From a bacterium (GTDB lineage: Bacteria > Patescibacteriota > Minisyncoccia > Phycocordibacterales > UBA2100), in NCBI GenBank assembly GCA_030648265.1, contig JAUSHX010000028.1:249-64248 (forward strand): a stretch of DNA of 64,000 nt. Reading direction: 5' to 3'. The translations under genes were made by a program, and so were the position numbers. The notes beneath the pieces are model-generated. The model was not told where the DNA came from and did not search any database. It saw only the letters and a program-made list of their open reading frames with translations. Within the stretch, counting starts at the first letter, position 1; each line of letters starts with the position of its first letter. Positions 2,720-59,549 of this stretch are shown in pieces.

Positions 2720-2747
2720 CTCTACGTTCTACGTTCTACGTTCTACG
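2720..2747. repeat. tandem heptamer TTCTACG x4 just upstream of pilM
   Basis: tctacgttctacgttctacgttctacg ends 12 nt before the pilM ATG. Confidence 0.8.
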
Positions 2748-2759
2748 CACTAGTCCCCT

Positions 2760-3911
2760 ATGTCTTTCTCCCTCGGCGGTATTTCAAAATTCTTCAAGTC
2801 CTCATTCGGAGGAAGTTCCGAGGGGAGCATTATCGGCATTGACATCGGTGCGTCGTCCGCGAAAATTGTCCAGTTGCGCGCGTCCCGCGGGACGGCGATT
2901 CTTGAAACGTACGGAGAAATCGCTCTCGGGCCCTACGGAGGCCAGGCAATCGGCAAAGCGGTGAAACTGACTCCGGAAAAAATTGCCGAGGCGCTCAGCG
3001 ATCTCATGCGCGAGGCAAATGTGACCGCCCGTACTGGCGGGCTCTCCATACCCTTTTCTGCGAGTCTCGTGTCGGTGCTTGAAATGCCGAAAGTGGACAA
3101 AGATTCTCTAAAGAGAATGGTTCCGATAGAGGCGCGCAAATATATTCCGCTTCCCGTATCGGAAGTCACTCTTGATTGGTTCGTCATACCGCATGAGGAG
3201 CAGGGGGAGAGCGCGTTTGACCAGGTGGAGGCGCCCAAACCCGTTCACGCGAGAATGCAGGAAATCCTCCTCGTCGCCATACATAATGAAATCCTCCGGG
3301 ACTATCAGAAGATATCAGAGGCAACCGGGCTCAACGTGAGTTTCTACGAGATTGAGATTTTCAGCGCGACTCGTTCCTCAATGGGGCATGGCGCGGCGCC
3401 TGTCTTGGTTGTTGATTTGGGCGCGGCGACGACGAAGATGTATATTGTGGAGCGCGGGATTGTGCGCCTTACCCACCTGCTCACATCCGGCGGACAAAAC
3501 ATGACGGATACGCTGGCGCGCTCGCTCTCATGGGAATTTGAAAAAGCGGAGCGCGTGAAGAGGGAAATCGGACTTGTCAGTTCAACCGCGTACAGCACGG
3601 ATGAGAACGACCGGATAAAGACGGCATTGTTATCAACACTCTCCCGTGTGTTTTCTGAGATAGACCGAGTATTATTAAGCTACGGGCAGCGATATAACAA
3701 AAACGTGTCGAATGTCCTCTTGACTGGAGGAGGGGCATCGCTACCCGGCCTTGCGGAACATGCCAAGGGGTCGTTGCACGCGGAAGTTCTGATTGCGGAT
3801 CCTTTTTCGCGCTCGGAGGCGCCCGCATTTCTCCGAGATGTTCTGCGGCAGATTGGTCCGGGGTTTTCCGTTGCGGTGGGTCTTGCGTTGCGGAATTTGA
3901 AGCAAGGATAA
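2760..3911 (+). CDS. pilM: type IV pilus assembly protein PilM (actin-like ATPase fold)
   Basis: IGIDIGASSAKIVQL N-terminus, 383 aa, first gene of the pilus operon. Confidence 0.8.
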   Translation: MSFSLGGISKFFKSSFGGSSEGSIIGIDIGASSAKIVQLRASRGTAILETYGEIALGPYGGQAIGKAVKLTPEKIAEALSDLMREANVTARTGGLSIPFSASLVSVLEMPKVDKDSLKRMVPIEARKYIPLPVSEVTLDWFVIPHEEQGESAFDQVEAPKPVHARMQEILLVAIHNEILRDYQKISEATGLNVSFYEIEIFSATRSSMGHGAAPVLVVDLGAATTKMYIVERGIVRLTHLLTSGGQNMTDTLARSLSWEFEKAERVKREIGLVSSTAYSTDENDRIKTALLSTLSRVFSEIDRVLLSYGQRYNKNVSNVLLTGGGASLPGLAEHAKGSLHAEVLIADPFSRSEAPAFLRDVLRQIGPGFSVAVGLALRNLKQG

Positions 3912-4022: not shown

Positions 4023-4733
4023 ATGGAAACGGGAATACAAAATACTTTTATACCGCACGATGTCTCGCAACCTGCGCAACGAGAGCGCGCGCGGGAGGGC
4101 GGTATCATGGATCTCGTGATGCTCGTGTCTATTGTTCTCCTGGTTGCGTCTTTGGCTCTTGCGGCAGGGGTTTTTCTGTACCAGCAATATCTGGATACGA
4201 GCAGTAAAAGCAAAATTAATCAACTCAATATTGCCAAGGCGCAGTTTGACCCGGTGCTCATTCAGGAATTTTCACGCTTAGATGACAGGATGCGGGACGC
4301 GGATTTGATTTTGGGCAACCACATCGCCCCGTCCGTATTCTTCCATATGCTGGAGGCAAATACCCTGACCACGGTATCATTTCGTTCCCTTGATTTTCAG
4401 GCGGGAAGCGATGAGGGTATGTCTATAAAAATGGGAGGAATCGCTAAGAGCGTGAATTCCATAGCGCTGCAGGCCGACTTTTTCAGCAAAGTAGGCATTA
4501 TAACGAGCCCGATTTTTTCCAACATTGACCGTCAACTGGACGGGGTGCATTTCAGTTTTTCTGCGCTCGTAAATCCATCCGCAATACGCTACGCGCAATT
4601 GGCGGCAGCGGGAAATGGAGGAAATGCCGTGCCAACGCTTTCTGTGCCCACAGCGCCTTCGGCGGCCCCAACCCCAACCCCGGCTCCCGAATCAGGATTA
4701 TTTCCTTCGCAGCCGGCGAACCAGCAACAATAA
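4023..4733 (+). CDS. PilN-like bitopic membrane protein with Pro/Ala/Thr-rich C-terminus
   Basis: Single N-terminal TM segment (LVMLVSIVLLVASLALAAGVFLY) and position between pilM and pilO. Alternative start at 4107. Confidence 0.45.
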   Translation: METGIQNTFIPHDVSQPAQRERAREGGIMDLVMLVSIVLLVASLALAAGVFLYQQYLDTSSKSKINQLNIAKAQFDPVLIQEFSRLDDRMRDADLILGNHIAPSVFFHMLEANTLTTVSFRSLDFQAGSDEGMSIKMGGIAKSVNSIALQADFFSKVGIITSPIFSNIDRQLDGVHFSFSALVNPSAIRYAQLAAAGNGGNAVPTLSVPTAPSAAPTPTPAPESGLFPSQPANQQQ

Positions 4734-9436: not shown

Positions 9437-9627
9437 AAAATAAGGAGCAGAGCGACTATATTTTTCTAACCCCCCACCACTTTAGTATCCCACAACCTTA
9501 TCTTAGATTTGATACTATGTTGAGACGGTCTCGACGAAATCACAAGATTAGAATATGAGAACGGATACTAAAGTGGTGGGGGGTGTAAGATTTTCTAAGC
9601 TCGCTCCGCTCGCTAACAAAATCTAAC
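9437..9627 (+). repeat. triple-hairpin intergenic element copy C
   Basis: Left-arm hairpin AAAAATA..GAGCAGAGCGA..TATTTTT. Central IR CCCCCCACCACTTTAGTATCC (9470-9490) pairs with GGATACTAAAGTGGTGGGGGG (9563-9583). Right arm: TGTAAGATTTTCTAAGCTCGCTCCGCTCGCTAACAAAATCTAAC-ATG. Confidence 0.85.
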
Positions 9628-10839: not shown

Positions 10840-10953
10840 CCCCTTACCACTTTGATATCCCTCAACACTCTTCAGAACCGATACTTAGTTGAAACGGTCT
10901 CTGCGATGTATTGGATTTGATGTTTCAGGAACGGATGTCAAAGTGGTAAGGGG
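10840..10953 (+). repeat. central-hairpin element copy D (no conserved right arm)
   Basis: CCCCTTACCACTTTGATATCC (10840-10860) pairs with GGATGTCAAAGTGGTAAGGGG (10933-10953). The loop is homologous to the loop of copy C. Confidence 0.8.
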
Positions 10954-12611: not shown

Positions 12612-12659
12612 CCCACCCCACCACTTTTGCCTCTTTAGCGTGGCAAAAGTGGTGGGGGG
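12612..12659 (+). repeat. central-hairpin element copy E (short loop, terminator-like)
   Basis: CCCACCCCACCACTTTTGCC ... GGCAAAAGTGGTGGGGGG. Confidence 0.75.
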
Positions 12660-12676
12660 TGCGATAATACACGCAC

Positions 12677-13501
12677 ATGCTTGCTGTAATGTACGGTTTG
12701 TTCGGTCTTATAATCGGCAGTTTCGTAAATGTTGTTGTATTGCGCTCCGGAGTGCTTTCACTTTCCGGCAAAAGCGGATGTATGTCGTGCGGCGCAAAAA
12801 TCAAATGGTATGACCTTATTCCGGTTCTTTCTTGGCTTGCACTCCGCGGAAGATGCCGCGCGTGCGGAAGCCGCATTTCCGTGCAATATCCAGCGGTGGA
12901 ACTTGGAACGGGGGTTTCTTTCGCGCTTATCGGCGGGGCCTCTTTGCCGCCTCTCGCGACACTCCTCGGGTTGCTTATATGCTCGGTTCTTATCGCAATT
13001 GCAGTCTATGACCTCCGGCATACCATTATTCCGGATGCGTGGGTGTGGAGCTTCAATGCACTAGCTCTTATCTCTATCTTTCTTCCTGAAAGCAGTCTGA
13101 CTGCCTTTAGCAGTCAGACTGCTTTCGATACCATCGCAGGTCCCATTGTCGCCGCTCCGCTTTTCGTTCTATGGCTCGTGTCACGCGGAAAATGGATTGG
13201 ATTGGGTGATTCCAAACTCGCTCTGGGGATCGGCTGGCTTCTAGGTTCGCTTGCAGGCATTAAAGCGGTACTCTTGGCTTTCATTCTCGGAGCGATAATC
13301 GGGCTTGCGCTGATTTTCTTTTCATCTGCCTTGTGGAATAGGATTGTGAAGCAATTTATCCAGCACCACTCATGGCACATGAGTGGTGCTGGGATTACAA
13401 TGAAGAGTGAAATTCCATTCGGACCGTTTTTAATCGCGGCTTGTCTGTTCGTATGGATATCACAGATATATCACATCCCGATTCCTTTTTTATGGCAGTA
13501 A
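12677..13501 (+). CDS. pilD: prepilin peptidase / N-methyltransferase PilD (A24 family)
   Basis: N-terminal CxxC..CxxC domain (CMSCGAKI ... CRACGSRI). Catalytic Asp motifs AVYDL and GLGDSKL. Confidence 0.85.
   Translation: MLAVMYGLFGLIIGSFVNVVVLRSGVLSLSGKSGCMSCGAKIKWYDLIPVLSWLALRGRCRACGSRISVQYPAVELGTGVSFALIGGASLPPLATLLGLLICSVLIAIAVYDLRHTIIPDAWVWSFNALALISIFLPESSLTAFSSQTAFDTIAGPIVAAPLFVLWLVSRGKWIGLGDSKLALGIGWLLGSLAGIKAVLLAFILGAIIGLALIFFSSALWNRIVKQFIQHHSWHMSGAGITMKSEIPFGPFLIAACLFVWISQIYHIPIPFLWQ
13088..13126. repeat. 39-nt perfect inverted repeat inside the pilD CDS, in frame
   Basis: GAAAGCAGTCTGACTGC-CTTTA-GCAGTCAGACTGCTTTC encodes ESSLTAFSSQTAF in a loop between TM segments. Confidence 0.85.
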
Positions 13502-14343
13502 CCCCTTACCACTTTTCCTATGTCTACATTCTGAACAGTATGCGGTTTCCACGACGAATATATATTGGTTTTACAAACAATCTTAGAAAACGCTTCGGTC
13601 AACACAACGACGGGGAAGTAATCTCGACAAAGCAATATGCACCATGGGAATTACTTTATTATGAAGCGTTTTCTAAGGAGCGATTCGCGCGCCAACGTGA
13701 GTTGCATCTCAAGAATAATGGCAACCCTATGCGCGAGTTGAAAAAACGTATCGGCTTTGATTCCGTTAGGAAAAGTGGTAAGGGGGGCTTCACCCTCATG
13801 GAGCTTATTGTTGTCACTGGTATCATTGTTGTCATCACATCCGTTGTCCTTGCAAACAATAACAGATACGGCGGGTCGGTTCTTCTGCAAAACCTGGCGT
13901 ATGACATCGCACTTTCAATACGGCAGGCGCAAGTATACGGAATATCGGTGCGCGGTCTCGGTGCGAGCAATTTCAGCATTGGATACGGAATGCATTTTGC
14001 AATGAACGACTCTACGCACTATGAGCTTTTTTCGGATGCGGACAACAACGGATTATTCAGTGATGCTTCCGAAAATGTCTCTCCATCGCCGTATGTAATC
14101 GGTCGCAATTATTACATCGCGAAGCTTTGCGCGCCCGCCGGCACAAAATTATCTGACAATTCCTATGAATGTACTTCCGTCACCCAGCTTGATGTGCTGT
14201 ACAAACGCCCCGAACCGGATGCAGCCATTCGCATTCCCGGGACATCATCCTTGCAGGACAGCGCACGCATTATAGTTGAATCCCCGCGCGGGGATATTTT
14301 GAGCATCGTCGTTGATGCAACAGGGCAGATATCGGTACAGTAG
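13492..14343 (+). CDS. continuous ORF: GIY-YIG nuclease domain fused in frame to a minor (pseudo)pilin
   Basis: MAVTPYHFSYVYILNS..RIYIGFTNNLRKRFGQH..LLYYEAF (GIY, YIG, R and E all present) runs without a stop into RKSGKGG-FTLMELIVV. An internal ATG at 13729 would give an ordinary 20-aa prepilin leader. The ATG at 13492 overlaps the pilD stop. Confidence 0.7.
   Translation: MAVTPYHFSYVYILNSMRFPRRIYIGFTNNLRKRFGQHNDGEVISTKQYAPWELLYYEAFSKERFARQRELHLKNNGNPMRELKKRIGFDSVRKSGKGGFTLMELIVVTGIIVVITSVVLANNNRYGGSVLLQNLAYDIALSIRQAQVYGISVRGLGASNFSIGYGMHFAMNDSTHYELFSDADNNGLFSDASENVSPSPYVIGRNYYIAKLCAPAGTKLSDNSYECTSVTQLDVLYKRPEPDAAIRIPGTSSLQDSARIIVESPRGDILSIVVDATGQISVQ
13501..13787 (+). mobile_element. hairpin-bounded GIY-YIG module (full-length copy F)
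   Basis: IR ACCCCTTACCACTTTT (13501-13516) pairs with AAAAGTGGTAAGGGG (13771-13787) around the GIY-YIG coding region. The IR core is the same as in copy D. Confidence 0.6.
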
Positions 14344-14345
14344 TT

Positions 14346-15020
14346 ATGACCCCTTACCACTTTTTTCATGAACGTGAGCTGAATCTCAAAAACAGCGCTA
14401 ACCTCGTGCAAAAGTCGCAAAGACGCAGTAGTCACGATTCCGTTAGGAAAAGTGGTAAGGGGGGCTTCACCCTCGTTGAATTGATTGTCTCGGTTGGGCT
14501 TTTTGCTATCGTCATGCTTATTTCGGTCGGCGCTCTCCTGGCTCTTACGGGAGCCAATCGTAAAGCGCAGGCGCTCCAATCTGTTATGAACAATCTGAAT
14601 ATCGCTTTAGACGGCATGGTGCGTTCTATCCGCATGGGAAGCAATTTTCATTGCGGGTCGGGCGTATTTAACGGCACAAACAATCTTGACGACTGTCCGA
14701 ACGGCAATACGGTGCTCGTATTTAAACCGTTCGGAGGGAATCTGAATCAGCGGGGTTATCTGTTTGATACCGGCGGTACATACTGCGGCCAAAATCGGAT
14801 TTGCAAATCTGCAGATGGCGGGGCGCATTATGTCGCTCTCACGTCTCCGGAGGTGACGATAGACAGCATGAAATTTTATGTACAAGGGAGTACGCCGGGC
14901 GATACGGAACAACCGAAGGTCGTCATTACCGTAGAGGGCACGGCGGGTGCGGCAAATATGAAAACAAAGACGACGTTCAGCATTCAGGCGACGGCCGTAC
15001 AACGGCTCTTAGACCTATGA
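14346..15020 (+). CDS. minor (pseudo)pilin with 40-aa element-derived leader
   Basis: MTPYHFFHERELNLKN...RKSGKGG-FTLVELIV. Alternative GTG start at 14406. Confidence 0.75.
   Translation: MTPYHFFHERELNLKNSANLVQKSQRRSSHDSVRKSGKGGFTLVELIVSVGLFAIVMLISVGALLALTGANRKAQALQSVMNNLNIALDGMVRSIRMGSNFHCGSGVFNGTNNLDDCPNGNTVLVFKPFGGNLNQRGYLFDTGGTYCGQNRICKSADGGAHYVALTSPEVTIDSMKFYVQGSTPGDTEQPKVVITVEGTAGAANMKTKTTFSIQATAVQRLLDL
14349..14464 (+). mobile_element. internally deleted GIY-YIG module (copy G)
   Basis: Same IRs (14349-14364 and 14448-14464). It retains only the PYHF and ERELNLKN ends of the GIY-YIG ORF. Confidence 0.6.
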
Positions 15021-15658
15021 CCCCTTACCACTTTTTCCATGAACGTGAGCTGAATCTCAAAAACGGTGCTAATCTCATGCAAAAGTCGCAAAGATGCAGT
15101 AGTCACGATTCCATTAGAAAAAGTGGTAAGGGGGGCTTTACTCTTGTGGAAACGCTGGTAGCGATTTCGTTGCTCACAATCGCGATTGTTGCTCCGATGA
15201 CTCTTACGACACAAAGTCTTGGAAGCGCCTATTATGCCCGCGACCAAATAACGGCTTTCCACATCGCGCAGGAGGCGATTGAGTCCGTACGGCATGCGAG
15301 AGACCGTAACGTCCTGAAAAATGCGCTCGGTACAACAGTGAATCTGCTTGATGGTTTTCCCGCTTTGAACGGCGACCCATTTACGGTTGATACGACCAAC
15401 GGTGACGCCATGGAACTGTGCTCCGGTACGTGTCAAGCTTTGAGAAAAAGCAACGAAGGGCTGTATGGCTATAATCCCGCATGGAATAAGACTTATTTTA
15501 CTCGTACCGTCAACGCAACATTCGTACCCGAAAGCAATAATGATGAGGTTAATGTTTCCGTAACAGTTTCCTGGCAGACAGGAAGTTTCAACAGCCGCTC
15601 TTTCACGATTTCGGACAATCTTTTCAGGTGGGTGAACGACGGAAGCGCGTCGCAATAA
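15017..15658 (+). CDS. minor (pseudo)pilin with 40-aa element-derived leader
   Basis: ATGA overlap with the previous gene. MTPYHFFHERELNLKN...RKSGKGG-FTLVETLVA. Alternative ATG at 15077. Confidence 0.75.
   Translation: MTPYHFFHERELNLKNGANLMQKSQRCSSHDSIRKSGKGGFTLVETLVAISLLTIAIVAPMTLTTQSLGSAYYARDQITAFHIAQEAIESVRHARDRNVLKNALGTTVNLLDGFPALNGDPFTVDTTNGDAMELCSGTCQALRKSNEGLYGYNPAWNKTYFTRTVNATFVPESNNDEVNVSVTVSWQTGSFNSRSFTISDNLFRWVNDGSASQ
15020..15135 (+). mobile_element. internally deleted GIY-YIG module (copy H)
   Basis: About 93 percent identical to copy G over 122 nt by manual alignment. Identity collapses right after GGGGGGCTT. Confidence 0.6.
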
Positions 15659-15665
15659 AAATACT

Positions 15666-16240
15666 ATGAAAAAGTTTACAGTTTACAGTTTACAGTTTAC
15701 GGAATGGACGCGGCGAGTATTCCGCTGTCAACTGTCAACTGTCAACTGTCAACCGCGCGAGCGCGGTTTTACCCTTCTCCTTGCCGCGCTTGTTTCTTCC
15801 GTCGTCCTTGCCCTTGGCGTTTCAATATTTGAAATTGCTCTAAAACAAGTTAGTCTTTCGTCCATGGGGCGCGAATCGCAGTTCGCTTTTTATGCCGCCG
15901 ACACCGGCGCAGAATGCGCTCTCTATTGGGATGTTCGATGGAATTATTTTGCTACGACGACGCCGTCAAGCGTTGTGCCGCCGCAACCGAAATGCGCCAC
16001 GCAATCACTCAATGCGCTCGGACGCCCGACATCCCCCACGGACCCGTATACGATGACTTTCCAGTTTGACCCGAGCAACAAGTGCGCGCAAGTCAGTATT
16101 AAGAAATGCGCTGCCGTTGGTCTCTGCGATCCGGAGAACCCGCAAATTCATACGGTCATTCATGCCGACGGCTTCAATACATCCTGTGCGACTATAAGCA
16201 CGAGCGCACGTGCGCTTCAGCGTTCTGTGGAAATACAATA

Positions 16241-16244
<4 letters not shown>
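15666..16244 (+). CDS. minor (pseudo)pilin with heptamer-repeat-encoded leader
   Basis: ...CQPRERG-FTLLLAALVSSVVLAL. There is no in-frame ATG, GTG or TTG between the repeat and GFTLL. Confidence 0.65.
15674..15753 (+). repeat. heptamer-array inverted repeat (GTTTACA)n / (CTGTCAA)n
   Basis: Left arm 15674-15702 and right arm 15722-15753. Each 7-nt register has 6 complementary positions and 1 mismatch. Confidence 0.8.
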
Positions 16245-18700
<2,456 letters not shown>

Positions 18701-21104: not shown

Positions 21105-21179
21105 AGCGGGGTGGAGCAGTAGTAGCTCGCAAGGCTCATAACCTTGAGGTCGCAGGTGCAATTCCTGTCCCCGCAACCA
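21105..21179 (+). tRNA. initiator tRNA-Met (CAT), CCA encoded
   Basis: AGCGGGGTGGAGCAG...GGCTCATAACC...CCCCGCAACCA. There is a 1:72 mismatch and three G-C pairs in the anticodon stem, as in bacterial tRNA-fMet. Confidence 0.85.
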
Positions 21180-21188
21180 CGTAAAACG

Positions 21189-21213
21189 AAAACCCCGCCA
21201 TTGGCGGGGTTTT
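21189..21213 (+). terminator. rho-independent terminator after tRNA-fMet
   Basis: AAAACCCCGCC-ATTG-GCGGGGTTTT. Confidence 0.7.
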
Positions 21214-21327
21214 CGTCACGTGGCTTGCGCCAGCAGGACATGTGTGAGCGAAGCGATTTACGTGGTTGAGCCGCGTGGTGAACGGAGTGAGCTTTACGCG
21301 GCAACTTATTCACGTAAGAATGTGTAC

Positions 21328-21591
21328 ATGTACCATGTTTACCTTTTAGAAAACCAAGACGACAAAAGTTGGTATATCGGCTACAGCGCCAATCTCAAAC
21401 AACGAATCGAGCGGCATCAAAAGGGTGATGGCGCTCGCACAACAAGTAGAAAGGAAAACTGGGATTTGATTTACTATGAAGCCTACAAAAACGAACAAGA
21501 TGCAAAAGGACGCGAGCGCTTCCTTAAAAGCGGGTCTGGCAGAAAGTTCCTAAAAAAACAGCTCGCACACTATTTGGTTAGTGAATTGTGA
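21328..21591 (+). CDS. stand-alone GIY-YIG nuclease (YhbQ/UPF0213-like)
   Basis: MYHVYLLEN..SWYIGYSANLKQRIERH..LIYYEAY..RERFLKSGSG. Confidence 0.75.
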   Translation: MYHVYLLENQDDKSWYIGYSANLKQRIERHQKGDGARTTSRKENWDLIYYEAYKNEQDAKGRERFLKSGSGRKFLKKQLAHYLVSEL

Positions 21592-52237: not shown

Positions 52238-52250
52238 GGGGGAACGGTTC

Positions 52251-52339
52251 ACAGTCTACAGTTTACAGTGCACAGAAAGTCGTTAGAAATTTCGGTTTGT
52301 GATTTTCTCTGTCAACTGTAAACTGTCCACTGTCTACTA
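52251..52339. repeat. heptamer-array inverted repeat, intergenic copy (murJ-lepA)
   Basis: CACAGTCTACAGTTTACAGTGCACAG ... CTGTCAACTGTAAACTGTCCACTGTCTACT. Same ACAGT/ACTGT register as 15674-15753. Confidence 0.8.
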
Positions 52340-52357
52340 ACGGCACCATTGACCACT

Positions 52358-54142
52358 ATGTCCTCCAACATACGAAACTTCAGTATCATTGCCCACATAG
52401 ACCATGGCAAGAGTACCTTGGCGGACCGTATGCTTGAGATGACGGGTACCATAGAGGCGCGGGATATGCAGGAGCAGGTTCTAGACAGAATGGACCTGGA
52501 ACGCGAACGCGGAATCACCATAAAAATGGCCCCCGTCCGCATGAACTACACGCTAAACGCTACTCGCTATACGCTCAATCTAATTGACACTCCCGGCCAC
52601 GTAGATTTTGCCTATGAAGTATCGCGCGCGCTATCCGCCGTGGAGGGAGTCATTCTTCTTGTAGATTCCACGCAGGGCGTAGAGGCGCAGACACTTTCGG
52701 TTCTCGGAGTTGCAAAGAGTCTTGGGCTCGTCATCATTCCCGTAGTTTCCAAGATAGATTCGCCGAACGCGAGAATCGCGGACATTACAAGCGAACTTGC
52801 CCTATTGCTCGGGTGCCCCGAGTCGGATGTTCTTCCTGCTTCCGGGAAAACGGGAGATGGCGTGAAAGAGATATTGAATGCTGTCGTTGCAAGGATCCCG
52901 GCTCCGAAAGCTTCCGGCGGTAATCTGCAGGCGCTTGTGTTTGATTTCGGATATTCCGACCACCGCGGCGTCATCGTGTACGCGCGTATATTCGGCGGAC
53001 ACATCGCAAAGGGTGACAACCTGCGTCTGGTCGCCGCTCACGCCGATTTTATTGCTCTTGAGGTGGGAGTGATGAAGCCTGGCGAAACCCCGGTGGATAC
53101 CCTGAACGAAGGGGAAATCGGCTACATTGTTACAGGCATCAAGAAGCCCGGGCTGGCGTCTGTCGGCGATACCGTGACGACAGTACGCAATCCGGCACCC
53201 GCGCTACACGGGTATCGCTCACCCGCGCCGGTTATTTGGGCGAGCGTATATCCGGAGAATCAGGACAACTTGGTGCTTCTCCGTCAATCGCTTGCGCGCC
53301 TGCATCTGTCGGATTCATCGCTCTCGTATGAGGAAGAATCGTCCGGTGTTATGGGGAAAGGCTTCCGGTGCGGATTCCTTGGCATGCTTCACTTGGAGAT
53401 TATTATTGAGCGCCTGCGGCGCGAATTTGCGCTTAATCTTGTGGTGACGATGCCGACGACGGTGTATGAAGTAACGTACCAAAACGGAAAAGTTGAAGAG
53501 ATTTATGCGCCCGCCCGACTGCCCGACGATGGCACCGCAAAGCGCCTGCGCGAGCAGTGGTCGGAAGTTTCCGTCATATCTCCGCCGGAGTACCTCGGCG
53601 TCATTTCACAGTTGCTCTATGATCACGAAGCGATAATAGGGGATACGGAAACATTGCCCGACGGCAAGGCAAAACTCTCTTCGCAGATGCCTCTGCGCGA
53701 ACTCATGCGGGGGTTCTTTGATAAGTTGAAGAGCGTCTCATCGGGTTTTGCGTCGCTCTCCTATGAAATAATCGGCCTGCGCGATGCGGATGTGGTGCGT
53801 CTTGATGTGCTCGTCGCGGAGGAAATTATGCCGGCATTTTCTAGAATTGTCAGCCGCAGGCGCGTGCGGACTGAAGCTGAAGCGATTGTAGAAAAATTGG
53901 AAAAGATTTTACCCCGCCAGCAGTTCGTTTTAAAAATTCAGGCAAAAGCGATGGGAAATATCATAGCAGCTCGCCGTGTCTCTGCCCTGCGCAAAGATGT
54001 AACTGGCTATCTCTACGGCGGAGACATCACCCGAAAAATGAAACTATTGGAGAAACAGAAGAGGGGAAAGAAGAAAATGCTCGCGCGCGGGAAAGTTGAT
54101 ATCCCGCACGATGTTTTCTTGAAGGTCATTCGTGATAGCTAG
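52358..54142 (+). CDS. lepA: translation elongation factor 4
   Basis: IRNFSIIAHIDHGKSTLADR G1 motif, DTPGHVDF, LepA C-terminal domain. The ORF track opens at TTG 52349. Confidence 0.9.
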   Translation: MSSNIRNFSIIAHIDHGKSTLADRMLEMTGTIEARDMQEQVLDRMDLERERGITIKMAPVRMNYTLNATRYTLNLIDTPGHVDFAYEVSRALSAVEGVILLVDSTQGVEAQTLSVLGVAKSLGLVIIPVVSKIDSPNARIADITSELALLLGCPESDVLPASGKTGDGVKEILNAVVARIPAPKASGGNLQALVFDFGYSDHRGVIVYARIFGGHIAKGDNLRLVAAHADFIALEVGVMKPGETPVDTLNEGEIGYIVTGIKKPGLASVGDTVTTVRNPAPALHGYRSPAPVIWASVYPENQDNLVLLRQSLARLHLSDSSLSYEEESSGVMGKGFRCGFLGMLHLEIIIERLRREFALNLVVTMPTTVYEVTYQNGKVEEIYAPARLPDDGTAKRLREQWSEVSVISPPEYLGVISQLLYDHEAIIGDTETLPDGKAKLSSQMPLRELMRGFFDKLKSVSSGFASLSYEIIGLRDADVVRLDVLVAEEIMPAFSRIVSRRRVRTEAEAIVEKLEKILPRQQFVLKIQAKAMGNIIAARRVSALRKDVTGYLYGGDITRKMKLLEKQKRGKKKMLARGKVDIPHDVFLKVIRDS

Positions 54143-57586: not shown

Positions 57587-58168
57587 TCAGAACCCAAGCG
57601 TGTAGGTGAGAGCGCTTCCGTTTCCTTTTAGCCACTTTGAAGTGTCTAACTTTACTTCGCGCACTTTGCCCAGTTCGCTGTACCTTACGTGTCCGTTCGC
57701 CAGCGCGTAATCAAATAATTCTCGCGTAATCTCCACATCCTTCAGACAGTATTTCCGGACTTTATCAACTTCGCCTGCCCGCCACCATTTAAGCGATTGC
57801 GCGCCGTCTGCAGACTTCTTCTTTCCCAAAGTTCCGTCAGCAATCGCATCCAGCCGCAGACGGCGTCCCACGACGTCCTGAACTTCTTTCATGATGTCCA
57901 GGCTCCGTATGCGGGTCAAATCGCCCGGATAATATTTGTTGAGGAGGGGAATGTCAAAATGGTCGGAATTATAACCCACAAGAAGGTCGGTACGCTCCAG
58001 TATTTTCCACAGCTGCGGCAATTCCGGCTCAAGAAAGCTTTTGTACTCGCCGGTTTCGGAATCGTGAATACACACGAGTGCAATGGTGAGGTCCGCGGGT
58101 TGGGAGGTACCGACATCCGACATCCAGTTCGCCGTTTCAATGTCAAAAGTAATGATGCGCATGCTCAA
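57587..58168 (-). CDS. DEDD-type 3'-5' exonuclease (RNase H-like fold)
   Basis: IITFDIET ... GYNSDHFDIPLL ... YCLKDVEIT. Confidence 0.65.
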   Translation of the reverse strand: MSMRIITFDIETANWMSDVGTSQPADLTIALVCIHDSETGEYKSFLEPELPQLWKILERTDLLVGYNSDHFDIPLLNKYYPGDLTRIRSLDIMKEVQDVVGRRLRLDAIADGTLGKKKSADGAQSLKWWRAGEVDKVRKYCLKDVEITRELFDYALANGHVRYSELGKVREVKLDTSKWLKGNGSALTYTLGF

Positions 58169-58238
58169 GGTGACAGGTGTCAGGTGATAGGTTATAGAAG
58201 ATCCTTATAATTTGCGTTGTGCCTGGCACCTGAAACCT

Positions 58239-59549
58239 CTAACCTAATGAGCTGAACAAATGTTCTGCAATTCTGTCAGATGGCAGGGTGAGCTCGTTGC
58301 CGGTGGCGAGATTCTTTATCGTGTAGCGCCCGGATTCTCTCTCTTGCGCTCCAATAGCGATAACGAACGGCACCTTCATTTTATCGGCTTGGCGTATCTG
58401 GTCGCCGATGCGTTTTCCGGAGAAGTTCACGGCGACATTTACATCTTCTCTCCGCAGTTCTTGGGCGAGGCGCATAGCGTGCGGGAGGGCCGCGGTATCT
58501 ACAACGCACAACATGAGTTCTGTCGCCGGAGCATACACGGGTAACAGGTTATGCGCCTCAAGGAAATCGCGCGCGGTGACATCGCCCATTCCAAAACCGA
58601 CGGCCGGAATAGAAGAGCCACCTCCGCCAGAGGCGGATCCTCCTCCGGAGGAGAAGAGCGAAAGCAGGTTGTCGTATCGCCCTCCGCCGAAAATTGACCT
58701 CCTGTTATTTTCGTCGGTGTCATAAACCTCAAACACCATGCCCGTGTAGTAGTCAAATCCGCGCGTTATTTTCGTGTCTACAACCATGTTGTGCACGCCC
58801 ATCGATTCAAGCTGCGTGCGCAATTCTTCCAGATATGCCGTGCTCGTCGTGCGCTCCAAAAGTTCCAATAGTTGTTCTGCTTTCTTGTTGCCCACCAGTG
58901 CCGGAAGTTTCTTATTAAAATCGGGACTTTTCCCGCGCGTGTCCAGGAGCCGCGTCAGTTGAGCACGAATCTCCGCATCAATCTCCACAGAATCATAAAT
59001 TGAATCAATAATCCGGCGGTCGGAAACGCGTATCTCAAAATTCCGCTCATCGGCTCCGAGCGAACGCATAACGCTGTGCGCGAGCGTGATGATTTCCGCA
59101 TCCGCTTCAACGCCGGAGGCACCCACTATATCGGCGTTCAACTGCCAGTGTTCGCGCAGGCGCCCGCGCTGCGGCCGTTCATAGCGGAACATGTTTGCGA
59201 TTGAGTACCACCGGGCTGGAAGTGATATTTCCCGCGCCTTGCTTGCCACCATGCGTGCGAATGTCGGAGTCATTTCAGGCCTCAGGGTTACCTCGCGGTC
59301 GCCGCGGTCTTTAAATGTATACGTCTGGTCATTGACTATTTCCTCGGAAGTCTTGCCACGATAGAGCTCACTCGGTTCCAATACGGAAGCGCTGTACTCC
59401 TCATAGCCAAAAAGCTCGCAGACGCGCTCCATGTGTTCAAAGAGGTAGCGTAAAACAAATTGGTCTTCGGGGTAAAAATCGCGGACGCCCTTGTATGGTT
59501 CAGAAGAAAGTTTCTCACCTCGTTTAGCCATTGGCATATTATGCACCAA
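58239..59549 (-). CDS. hisS: histidyl-tRNA synthetase (with Gly/Ser-rich insertion)
   Basis: GVRDFYPED, class II aaRS motifs, RYERPQRGR, a GGGSASGGGGSS insert and a C-terminal anticodon-binding domain. Confidence 0.9.
   Translation of the reverse strand: MVHNMPMAKRGEKLSSEPYKGVRDFYPEDQFVLRYLFEHMERVCELFGYEEYSASVLEPSELYRGKTSEEIVNDQTYTFKDRGDREVTLRPEMTPTFARMVASKAREISLPARWYSIANMFRYERPQRGRLREHWQLNADIVGASGVEADAEIITLAHSVMRSLGADERNFEIRVSDRRIIDSIYDSVEIDAEIRAQLTRLLDTRGKSPDFNKKLPALVGNKKAEQLLELLERTTSTAYLEELRTQLESMGVHNMVVDTKITRGFDYYTGMVFEVYDTDENNRRSIFGGGRYDNLLSLFSSGGGSASGGGGSSIPAVGFGMGDVTARDFLEAHNLLPVYAPATELMLCVVDTAALPHAMRLAQELRREDVNVAVNFSGKRIGDQIRQADKMKVPFVIAIGAQERESGRYTIKNLATGNELTLPSDRIAEHLFSSLG

Follow-up and report, generated by a model that had tools for sequence, protein, structure and literature searches.

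A translated heptamer-array hairpin in the leader of a PilX-like minor pilin gene from the candidate phyla radiation

Why does a minor pilin gene carry an inverted repeat of 7-nt units between its start codon and the point at which its leader is cut off? The question is raised by a PilX-like gene in a 64,000-nt stretch (the window) of contig JAUSHX010000028.1, part of a metagenome-assembled genome (GCA_030648265.1) from the candidate phyla radiation (CPR). Our analysis indicates that the repeat forms a hairpin that would be translated as part of the prepilin leader, that its arms are kept free of stop codons, and that it is one copy of a lineage-wide class of heptamer-array imperfect palindromes. 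We lean towards the view that this palindromic repeat element has been spread by copying or gene conversion, and that the leader, being disposable, tolerates it.

Reading frame and mismatches of the pilX-leader hairpin

The host gene and the parts of the hairpin are:
15666..16244, plus strand: PilX-like fourth minor pilin gene, 192 amino acids (open reading frame listing, weak Pfam PilX_N match, homolog search)
15666..15674, plus strand: ATG AAA AAG, the start codon and two Lys codons (a conserved start of the ATGAAAAA type)
15673..15700, plus strand: left arm, (AGTTTAC)x4.0 (Tandem Repeats Finder, 100% matches; shuffles)
15700..15724, plus strand: 24-nt spacer, in which CGGAAT (15700-15705) and ATTCCG (15719-15724) form an inner stem around the 13-nt loop GGACGCGGCGAGT (RNA folds)
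15725..15753, plus strand: right arm, (CTGTCAA)x4.1 (Tandem Repeats Finder, 100% matches; fold; stop-codon enumeration)
about 15753..15769, plus strand: small GC hairpin CCGCGCGAGCGCGG followed by TTTT, ending at the cleavage site (sequence, folds)

The ATG at 15666 is the first start codon after the upstream stop in the open reading frame (ORF) 15666-16244, and no in-frame ATG, GTG or TTG lies between it and the GGT TTT codons at 15765-15770. The initial annotation had placed the repeat between the only available start codon and the cleavage motif, and had named the use of a downstream start as grounds for abandoning that view; no such start precedes the cleavage site, and the NCBI annotation of the same metagenome-assembled genome contains the identical 192-amino-acid protein, P0001 ('pilus assembly PilX N-terminal domain-containing protein'). 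The leader of 33 amino acids is translated MKKFTVYSLQFTEWTRRVFRCQLSTVNCQPRER and is followed by GFTLL, with cleavage between Gly and Phe (between 15767 and 15768).

The left arm begins directly after the ATG AAA AAG start. Both arrays of the initial annotation are real, although their positions were 1-3 nt off and the fourth left unit reads GTTTACG, not GTTTACA. The right arm is complementary to the left arm at six of every seven positions, and the fold bears out the predicted series of 6-bp blocks with one regular mismatch between each. The folding energy of the leader, which had been proposed as a check, is −44.4 kcal/mol (z = −3.65), and none of 200 shuffles is as stable. The AUG lies outside the stem, which starts about 7-8 nt after it.

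A chance repeat or an assembly artefact would be the least demanding explanation, and the genome is indeed metagenome-assembled. However, the longest exact period-7 run in the window covers 22 positions, a length that shuffles never approach (mean longest 7.8 and maximum 12 in 200 shuffles), and the longest exact run at any other period from 4 to 12 is at most 11. The same architecture with an open frame also recurs in dozens of independently assembled genomes, and a near-identical copy is present in two Joint Genome Institute (JGI) metagenome contigs. We regard chance or artefact as exceedingly improbable.

We compared the window with 80 orthologous loci, mostly from metagenome-assembled genomes of Candidatus Kaiserbacteria/Paceibacterota, at ~20 kb per genome (1.30 Mb with the window; the loci are numbered L001 and so on). 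Counting only the 37 hairpins that end within 60 nt of the prepilin G codon, the pilin frame is stop-free in 36, compared with 12 and 11 for the other two sense frames and 4-8 for the antisense frames. An in-frame start codon stands just upstream of the left arm in 34 of the 37, typically as ATGA(A/G)AAA directly after the stop of the upstream gene; this start directly precedes the left arm in L014, L016, L021, L033, L037, L081 and others. The encoded leaders are basic (18% K+R, 3.6% D+E), as suits a cytoplasmic prepilin leader. These frame counts show a hairpin that would be read through by the ribosome and that is kept stop-free.

The same requirement explains the regular mismatch. Successive 7-nt units are read in different frames, with all three visited once in 21 nt, so that translation of an array demands a unit without a stop in any of them. 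None of the 45 near-perfect arrays has a stop-bearing unit, and all 46 arrays with a stop in the consensus unit are imperfect, patched at intervals. If the two arms are written AGTT-X-AC and CTGT-Y-AA, only T:C and C:C among the 16 X:Y combinations are stop-free in all frames, and wherever X and Y form a Watson-Crick or wobble pair, one of the arms acquires a TAA or TGA. Those two are the only states seen: the window has T:C, L081 has three C:C units and one T:C unit, and L014 has C:C, C:C and T:C. The fully complementary, stop-bearing CTGTAAA occurs in untranslated relatives, namely at ~52320 of the window, downstream of L014 pilX, and in L016. There is one mismatch per heptamer, therefore, because translation requires stop-free arms. 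Across the class, G.U on the sense strand accounts for 21 of 223 mismatches against 62 of the A.C type, so that G.U is not enriched; the A.C-type excess, more marked in translated copies, probably stems from coding. Pairing is equally good in translated (78%) and untranslated (80%) copies.

Several other signals were considered within the leader. The small hairpin CCGCGCGAGCGCGG encodes the P-R-E-R-G-F codons, its stem covering P-R-E-R-G, and CCGCGC-NNN-GCGCGG hairpins like it stand at the same place in L011, L025 and L050; with its TTTT it resembles a mini terminator or a stable mini-hairpin of the GCGAAGC type. A scan for intrinsic terminators did not call the main hairpin, and only the small CCGCGCGAGCGCGG-TTTT motif is terminator-like. 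In Rfam 15 the pilX-leader hairpin has no match at the gathering threshold, the best sub-threshold hit being LhrC (25.6 bits vs 110 needed). The minus strand of the right arm reads (TTGACAG)x4, that is, four tandem perfect −35 hexamers (15745-15716) with AATACT 18 nt downstream, and is the best promoter-like match in 12.5-16.5 kb (10/12). An antisense promoter directed into minor pilin 3 is probably a coincidence, as the other heptamer families have no −35-like unit. We also rejected a −1 frameshift at AAAAAG plus hairpin, since there are only five A's, they fall in codons 2-3 with no spacer before the stem, and no in-frame product is regained. A likeness of the units to IS608 cleavage tetranucleotides (TTAC/TCAA) and integron attC is not common to the other heptamer families.

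The hairpin stands at the junction of minor pilin 3 with pilX. The gene order, which is the same in relatives, is major pilins, PilD, four minor pilins (pilX last) and ligA-gatC-gatA, and the peptidase expected to remove the repeat-containing leader is encoded nearby:
12677..13501, plus strand: prepilin peptidase PilD (Pfam A24_N_bact 1.5e-28, Peptidase_A24 4.7e-10)

The stop of minor pilin 3 (15656-15658) lies 7 nt before the pilX ATG, and the minor pilin 2 stop overlaps the minor pilin 3 start as ATGA (15017-15020). No Shine-Dalgarno-like sequence is visible before the gene starts inspected. From this arrangement the four minor pilins look translationally coupled.

A lineage-wide class of heptamer-array hairpins

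The 80 loci and the window together contain 276 period-7 arrays of at least three copies, whereas no other period has more than 13. Array lengths have a sharp peak at 30-32 nt, or ~4.4 units per arm, and in 70 of 82 adjacent array pairs at least five of seven positions are complementary, compared with 14% when pairs are random. Spacers have a median length of 28.5 nt and whole elements one of 87.5 nt, and at least 45 distinct heptamers are in use, with orthologous loci showing the same hairpin architecture built from different heptamers. The pilX-leader hairpin is thus one copy of a lineage-wide class of heptamer-array imperfect palindromes.

The class can be recognized in the proteins as well. 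We took leader lengths from the 115 listed orthologs with complete N-termini among 913 PilX homologs; they range from 4 to 63 residues, with 31 leaders of at most 12 amino acids and 43 of at least 25. The long leaders are 7-residue periodic peptides, one period corresponding to three heptamers, and consist of two blocks of wholly different sequence (QVSGVRHQVSG...YNLKPKTYNL, LVTRYWLLVTS...SNQYPVTSNQ and PASSFQLPAS...AARSSKLAA are examples). Conservation of the peptide with a scrambled nucleotide repeat, which would have pointed to selection on the protein, is the opposite of what we find: the peptides differ and the nucleic-acid architecture is common. Most of the 115 have shorter leaders without detectable heptamer arrays, and the 31 leaders of 12 residues or fewer indicate that the element is dispensable.

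The arrays are strongly concentrated in one part of the locus. Of 266 arrays, 131 are found no more than 220 nt upstream of a prepilin motif, in a zone with 6.5% of the bases, and ~63% of the heptamer hairpins occupy the 5' coding leader of an ORF. The minor-pilin block has ~1 array per kb and the flanking genes ~0.05; counted from the pilX cleavage codon, the densities are:
kb immediately before the codon: 0.99 per kb
next kb upstream: 0.62 per kb
third kb upstream: 0.35 per kb
first kb downstream of the codon (arrays mostly shortly past the pilX stop): 0.36 per kb
upstream pilus machinery and major pilins: 0.04-0.19 per kb
1-10 kb downstream: 0.00-0.18 per kb (mostly 0.10 or less)

In L081 a heptamer hairpin is present in all four minor-pilin leaders. 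The initial annotation had suggested a preferred insertion site, and this is supported by the varied heptamer hairpins at the same leader position across genomes and by near-identical copies within one genome. The arms AGTTTAC/CTGTCAA also occur at non-orthologous sites: in the minor pilin 3 leaders of L036 and L081, and in the pilT-pilC spacer of L001, where the window has an unrelated inverted-repeat element. The comparison of these two spacers indicates that pilus-cluster junctions have been occupied repeatedly by one palindromic element or another. The L001 hairpin (3620-3722) has its own ATG and a 31-codon mini-ORF (MRKSLQFTVYSLQ...STVN*); this stops 5 nt short of the pilC start, in a layout resembling an upstream ORF or leader peptide.

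Within single genomes, pilin leaders share more than their architecture. The leader elements of minor pilins 1 and 3 of L014 are ~93% identical, those of the pilin leaders in L030 96% and in L080 ~90%, and the loops in L021 are identical at 30 of 30 positions. The clear case is L084, where the last 20 nt before the start and the whole leader are identical over 110 nt between minor pilin 3 and pilX (3438-3547 and 4047-4156), as would be produced by conversion between neighbouring pilin 5' ends. Identity within a genome starts at about the ATG and extends into the conserved sequence coding for the N-terminal helix. Copies that share arms and loop are found mainly in pilin leaders, with a few heptamer copies in ligA, lepA and spacers of the ~20 kb covered per genome.

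Between genomes the distribution is patchy. The window and L081 (LigA 81% identical in amino acids) have 96% identity in the pilX-leader element, an island of 95-97% within flanks of 40-85%; the spacer is identical at 22 of 22 positions, the right arm is identical, and the mismatched position is the sole difference in the left arm. Equally distant relatives (LigA 78-84% identical to that of the window) have different pilX leaders: a degenerate, non-repeat leader in L083, only a right arm of another family in L084, and the ATACACG family in L001. Patchy distribution together with high identity between copies makes this look like a copied element, and the comparisons show copying between pilin leaders within a genome and fast turnover between genomes. 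Outside these loci, exact (CTGTCAA)x3 arrays are common in metagenome contigs that have many other period-7 arrays; these CTGTCAA arrays are mostly one-armed and not near pilins, and only 1 of 156 is at a prepilin motif. Scans of metagenome and viral contigs for three CTGTCAA units revealed no close strains of this organism, and a protein search with the element translated in three frames gave weak matches only, several of them to proteins named after Microcoleus/Oscillatoriales, and did not recover P0001 or P0005.

Unit number is stable among close strains: it is unchanged in all arrays between strains that are 98.6-99.9% identical (L081 vs L082; L084-L087). This bears on whether the leader is a contingency locus, in which gain or loss of a 7-nt unit by slipped-strand mispairing would switch PilX on and off by frameshift. 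The unit is not a multiple of three, the tract separates the start codon from the mature part of a surface-structure protein, and the identical units within an arm imply past slippage or homogenization. The close strains nevertheless show no change, each arm, with only ~4 units, keeps to 30-32 nt from genome to genome, the frame is kept in 36 of 37 copies and no OFF alleles are seen, and the same arrays occur in untranslated spacers. Phase variation is accordingly a very unlikely explanation.

The units themselves have a common core. YAG is present in 33 of the 45 distinct left-arm (5'-arm) units and CTR in 33 of 44 right-arm units, ~2.6 times expectation; the usual form is N4-YAG in units of the 5' arm and CTR-N4 in those of the 3' arm. 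HutP binds UAG-N4-UAG-N4-UAG, and HutP and TRAP recognize NAG triplets at fixed spacing. The arrays might accordingly be periodic protein-binding sites that compete with the hairpin, providing ligand- or condition-dependent control or a function at the DNA level such as starting recombination; candidates are an RNA-binding oligomer of the HutP/TRAP kind, a cold-shock protein, or a DNA enzyme such as a primase recognizing CTG/CTA. The regular spacing of the triplet, the fixed arm length of ~4.4 units, and the frequency of TAG despite its liability in a translated array are consistent with such sites, and CspB binds one heptamer per monomer (MacGregor 2015, PMC4679880). Yet YAG/CTR is missing from about a quarter of the units, those of the GTAT/ATAC and AATTTTC families among them; both strands of a hairpin show the same YAG/CTR asymmetry, which thus does not indicate which strand or molecule is read; and the resemblance to HutP and TRAP is a putative one. 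We consider periodic binding improbable. Its most specific form, in which a putative HutP/TRAP-like oligomer would bind the (N4-YAG)4 arm, open the hairpin and license translation of each minor pilin, is an analogy that we hold to be similarly doubtful; if it were true, pilus-tip composition would be set post-transcriptionally, cistron by cistron, and the elements would carry this control with them as they spread.

Other repeats in the window

Further heptamer arrays in the window are:
52247..52338, plus strand: degenerate ACAGT/ACTGT heptamer hairpin in the murJ-lepA spacer, untranslated (Tandem Repeats Finder, 81-82% matches; fold −38.2 kcal/mol)
58168..58250, no strand assigned: third heptamer-array hairpin, in the spacer that separates hisS from an RNase H-like exonuclease gene (folds −34 to −37 kcal/mol, z −3.6 to −4.3)
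2721..2747, plus strand: one-armed (TCTACGT)x3.9, ending 13 nt before the pilM start (Tandem Repeats Finder)
18120..18151, plus strand: one-armed in-frame (GCTACAG)x4.4 near the ligA 3' end (Tandem Repeats Finder)

The murJ-lepA element, between MurJ (Pfam 1e-50) upstream and LepA downstream, had been called an intergenic twin of the pilX-leader repeat. It is a real relative with the same ACAGT/ACTGT core, but it is degenerate, its loop differs and it contains the stop-bearing unit CTGTAAA (~52320), so it is no duplicate. The hairpin at 58168-58250 pairs AGGTGAC, AGGTGTC, AGGTGAT and AGGTTAT units with ACCT-type units, and both flanking genes are on the minus strand. The one-armed tandem before pilM had also been noted and is confirmed. 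GGCTACA-type arrays stand at the same relative position of ligA in L008 (7195-7226), L055 (12374-12399) and L067 (7544-7572); their presence in several genomes indicates that heptamer arrays also settle in housekeeping coding sequence. A degenerate period-7 stretch within lepA (52546-52575; CTACACG CTAAACG CTACTCG CTATACG) is translated YTLNATRYTL, just before the IDTPGH motif.

All four minor pilins of the window do have a leader hairpin, as had been proposed, although the first three belong to an unrelated family with terminal inverted repeats CCCCTTACCACTTT / AAAGTGGTAAGGGG. The termini of this family are CCCC(TT/CC)ACCACTTT...AAAGTGGT(AA/GG)GGGG, and its short copies of ~114 nt fold at −43 to −57 kcal/mol. 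Its copies in the window are:
9470-9583
10840-10953
12646-12659 (one arm)
13502-13785
14350-14462
15021-15133

The 284-nt copy encodes a GIY-YIG domain (Pfam 2e-14) fused in frame to minor pilin 1, and the copies in minor pilins 2 and 3 (translated TPYHFFHERELNLKN...KSGKGG) look like internally deleted derivatives. Copies outside the leaders are in the pilT-pilC and post-pilC spacers. That an unrelated element fills sites of the window equivalent to those of heptamer hairpins elsewhere is also in keeping with a preferred insertion site. A second GIY-YIG-like ORF fragment (21148-21588), directly after tRNA-Met (21105-21179), matches the pilin-leader copy with a phmmer E-value of 9e-11. We rejected the GIY-YIG nuclease as a driver of heptamer spread, since it is found in the pilin leaders of only 3 of 88 loci and belongs to the inverted-repeat family.

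Origin, possible regulation and known repeats

The reading that we lean towards is composite. The element sits in frame between codon 3 and the PRER-G/F end of the leader, and the leader without it would be an ordinary M-K-K-P-R-E-R-G. The ribosome would read through the element and, from what is known of PilD, the extra ~27 residues would be discarded with the leader, so that the mature pilin would be unchanged. Gene conversion or microhomology-mediated template switching would account for the spread, with the ATGAAAAA start and the sequence coding for the GFTL(I/L)E helix, both conserved, as anchors. Elements may have accumulated in minor-pilin leaders because these leaders are disposable and their genes expressed at a low level, in an operon without intergenic space. 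As a side effect, an mRNA hairpin of about −40 kcal/mol just after the AUG should hinder fresh ribosome loading, and translation of pilX would then rely on ribosomes that come from the cistron upstream; the hairpin may have a regulatory role.

Several points weigh against this reading. We found no transposase gene in the region read, no target-site duplication at the flanks (GAAAAAG...CCGCGCG) and no conserved terminus, and consequently the copying mechanism is one that we infer. The fixed arms of 30-32 nt, the YAG/CTR core and the 10-20-fold enrichment in minor pilins, which exceeds that near major-pilin genes, could equally reflect a selected function. The 96% identity island shared with L081, including the 13-nt loop, on which no constraint is obvious, would fit purifying selection as well as recent transfer, and two unrelated hairpin families at the same junctions could point to a need for a hairpin there.

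Such a need would be met if the element were a selected cis-regulatory RNA hairpin at cistron boundaries, lowering or coupling translation or shielding the upstream mRNA from 3'-exonucleases in the way of the REP/BIME palindromes of E. coli operons. By lowering or coupling translation it would hold the minor pilins at a low level and in a constant ratio, and translation of the hairpin would be the price of an operon without spacers. The strong fold starting 8 nt past the AUG, the uniform arm length, the enrichment in minor over major pilins, and the unrelated hairpin families at equivalent junctions all argue for this possibility, as does the fact that, between the window and L081, no stretch is better conserved than the element. 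In many genomes each minor-pilin junction has a hairpin, as does the stretch right behind the pilX stop, and the 7-nt gap before the pilX AUG and the ATGA overlap of minor pilins 2 and 3 point to translational coupling. However, many orthologous leaders have no detectable arrays, even in the close relative L083, and sense-strand G.U, which would preserve pairing in the RNA, is under-represented at the 21 of 223 mismatches given above. Translated copies are no better paired than untranslated ones, and no Rfam family matches. A translation-gating hairpin or RNA thermometer would be expected to sequester the start codon or ribosome-binding site, whereas here the AUG is outside the stem. We regard selected cis-regulation as a possibility to be taken seriously, but as clearly less probable than spread of a tolerated element.

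We also compared the class with known repeats. Heptamer direct repeats occur in cyanobacteria, Beggiatoaceae and Bacteroidetes without an established function (PMC4679880; PMC4692102), and the TAACTGA repeats of these groups comprise 169 direct sets and one indirect set (MacGregor 2015, PMC4679880). Like the TAACTGA repeats and the cyanobacterial short tandemly repeated repetitive (STRR) sequences, the present class has a 7-nt unit in 2-6 copies, several families per genome, positions near start codons and occasional translation, and period 7 is far commoner than any other period (276 vs 13 or fewer). Unlike them, it consists mostly of complementary inverted pairs in a hairpin of fixed size, not of one-armed intergenic arrays, its host is a CPR lineage, and its arrays are concentrated, stop-free, in prepilin leaders.

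Translation of a palindrome has a parallel elsewhere. Rickettsia palindromic elements (RPE), said to have been described by Ogata and colleagues in 2000, are reportedly in-frame palindromes within protein-coding genes. They share with the leader element a palindrome of ~100 nt that is in frame and translated where the extra peptide is harmless. RPE families, however, are conserved in sequence, have no tandem heptamers, persist in mature proteins and are not tied to one gene family, whereas the insert here is in a segment that is cleaved off.

Other short palindromes offer a further comparison. Repetitive extragenic palindromic (REP) sequences and bacterial interspersed mosaic elements (BIMEs), and the MITEs (miniature inverted-repeat transposable elements) of the Correia/ERIC type, are short, imperfectly palindromic sequences that lie at cistron boundaries and fold within the mRNA, with a possible role in stability or coupling, and intergenic members exist here too (52247-52338 and 58168-58250). 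Unlike the element described here, which is intragenic, ~80 nt long and built of heptamer arms, REPs are extragenic, 20-40 nt long, linked to REP-associated tyrosine transposases (RAYTs) and marked by a conserved GTAG head; this head is absent from the heptamer elements, and RAYT genes were not searched for. The terminal inverted repeats and target-site duplications of MITEs are not seen here, and MITEs have no heptamer-array arms.

Two further systems combine short units with control of expression. In Haemophilus hmw, 7-bp repeats with an RNA hairpin are associated with phase variation (PMC8262952, PMC12721329). Here as in hmw and the CTCTT repeats of Neisseria opa, the unit is not a multiple of three and the tract separates the start codon from the mature surface protein, but the tracts here are very short, fixed in length and hairpin-paired, with no length polymorphism between close strains. 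HutP and TRAP sites consist of regularly spaced NAG triplets in leader RNAs, where binding competes with a hairpin; the 5' arm resembles them in its YAG at a 7-nt period and its competing complementary arm, but differs in that a quarter of the units here have no triplet and the elements are optional across genomes. In the literature searched we did not find an inverted heptamer-array hairpin that is translated in cleavable prepilin leaders and present clade-wide in the CPR. We class the heptamer hairpin as a variant that combines known kinds of repeat, not as a new kind.

Small, gene-dense CPR genomes thus carry an abundant structured repeat in the form of heptamer-array hairpins. In these, one sequence satisfies two constraints, self-pairing and freedom from stops in three frames, and together these predict the bases allowed at the mismatched position. 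For annotation, the odd, long, 7-residue-periodic leaders of CPR pilins are translated repeats, not novel domains or wrong starts, and gene callers that pick a start inside the loop truncate such genes. If the hairpins affect expression, they would show how episymbionts tune the pilus-tip complex, which is thought to be used for host contact and DNA uptake.

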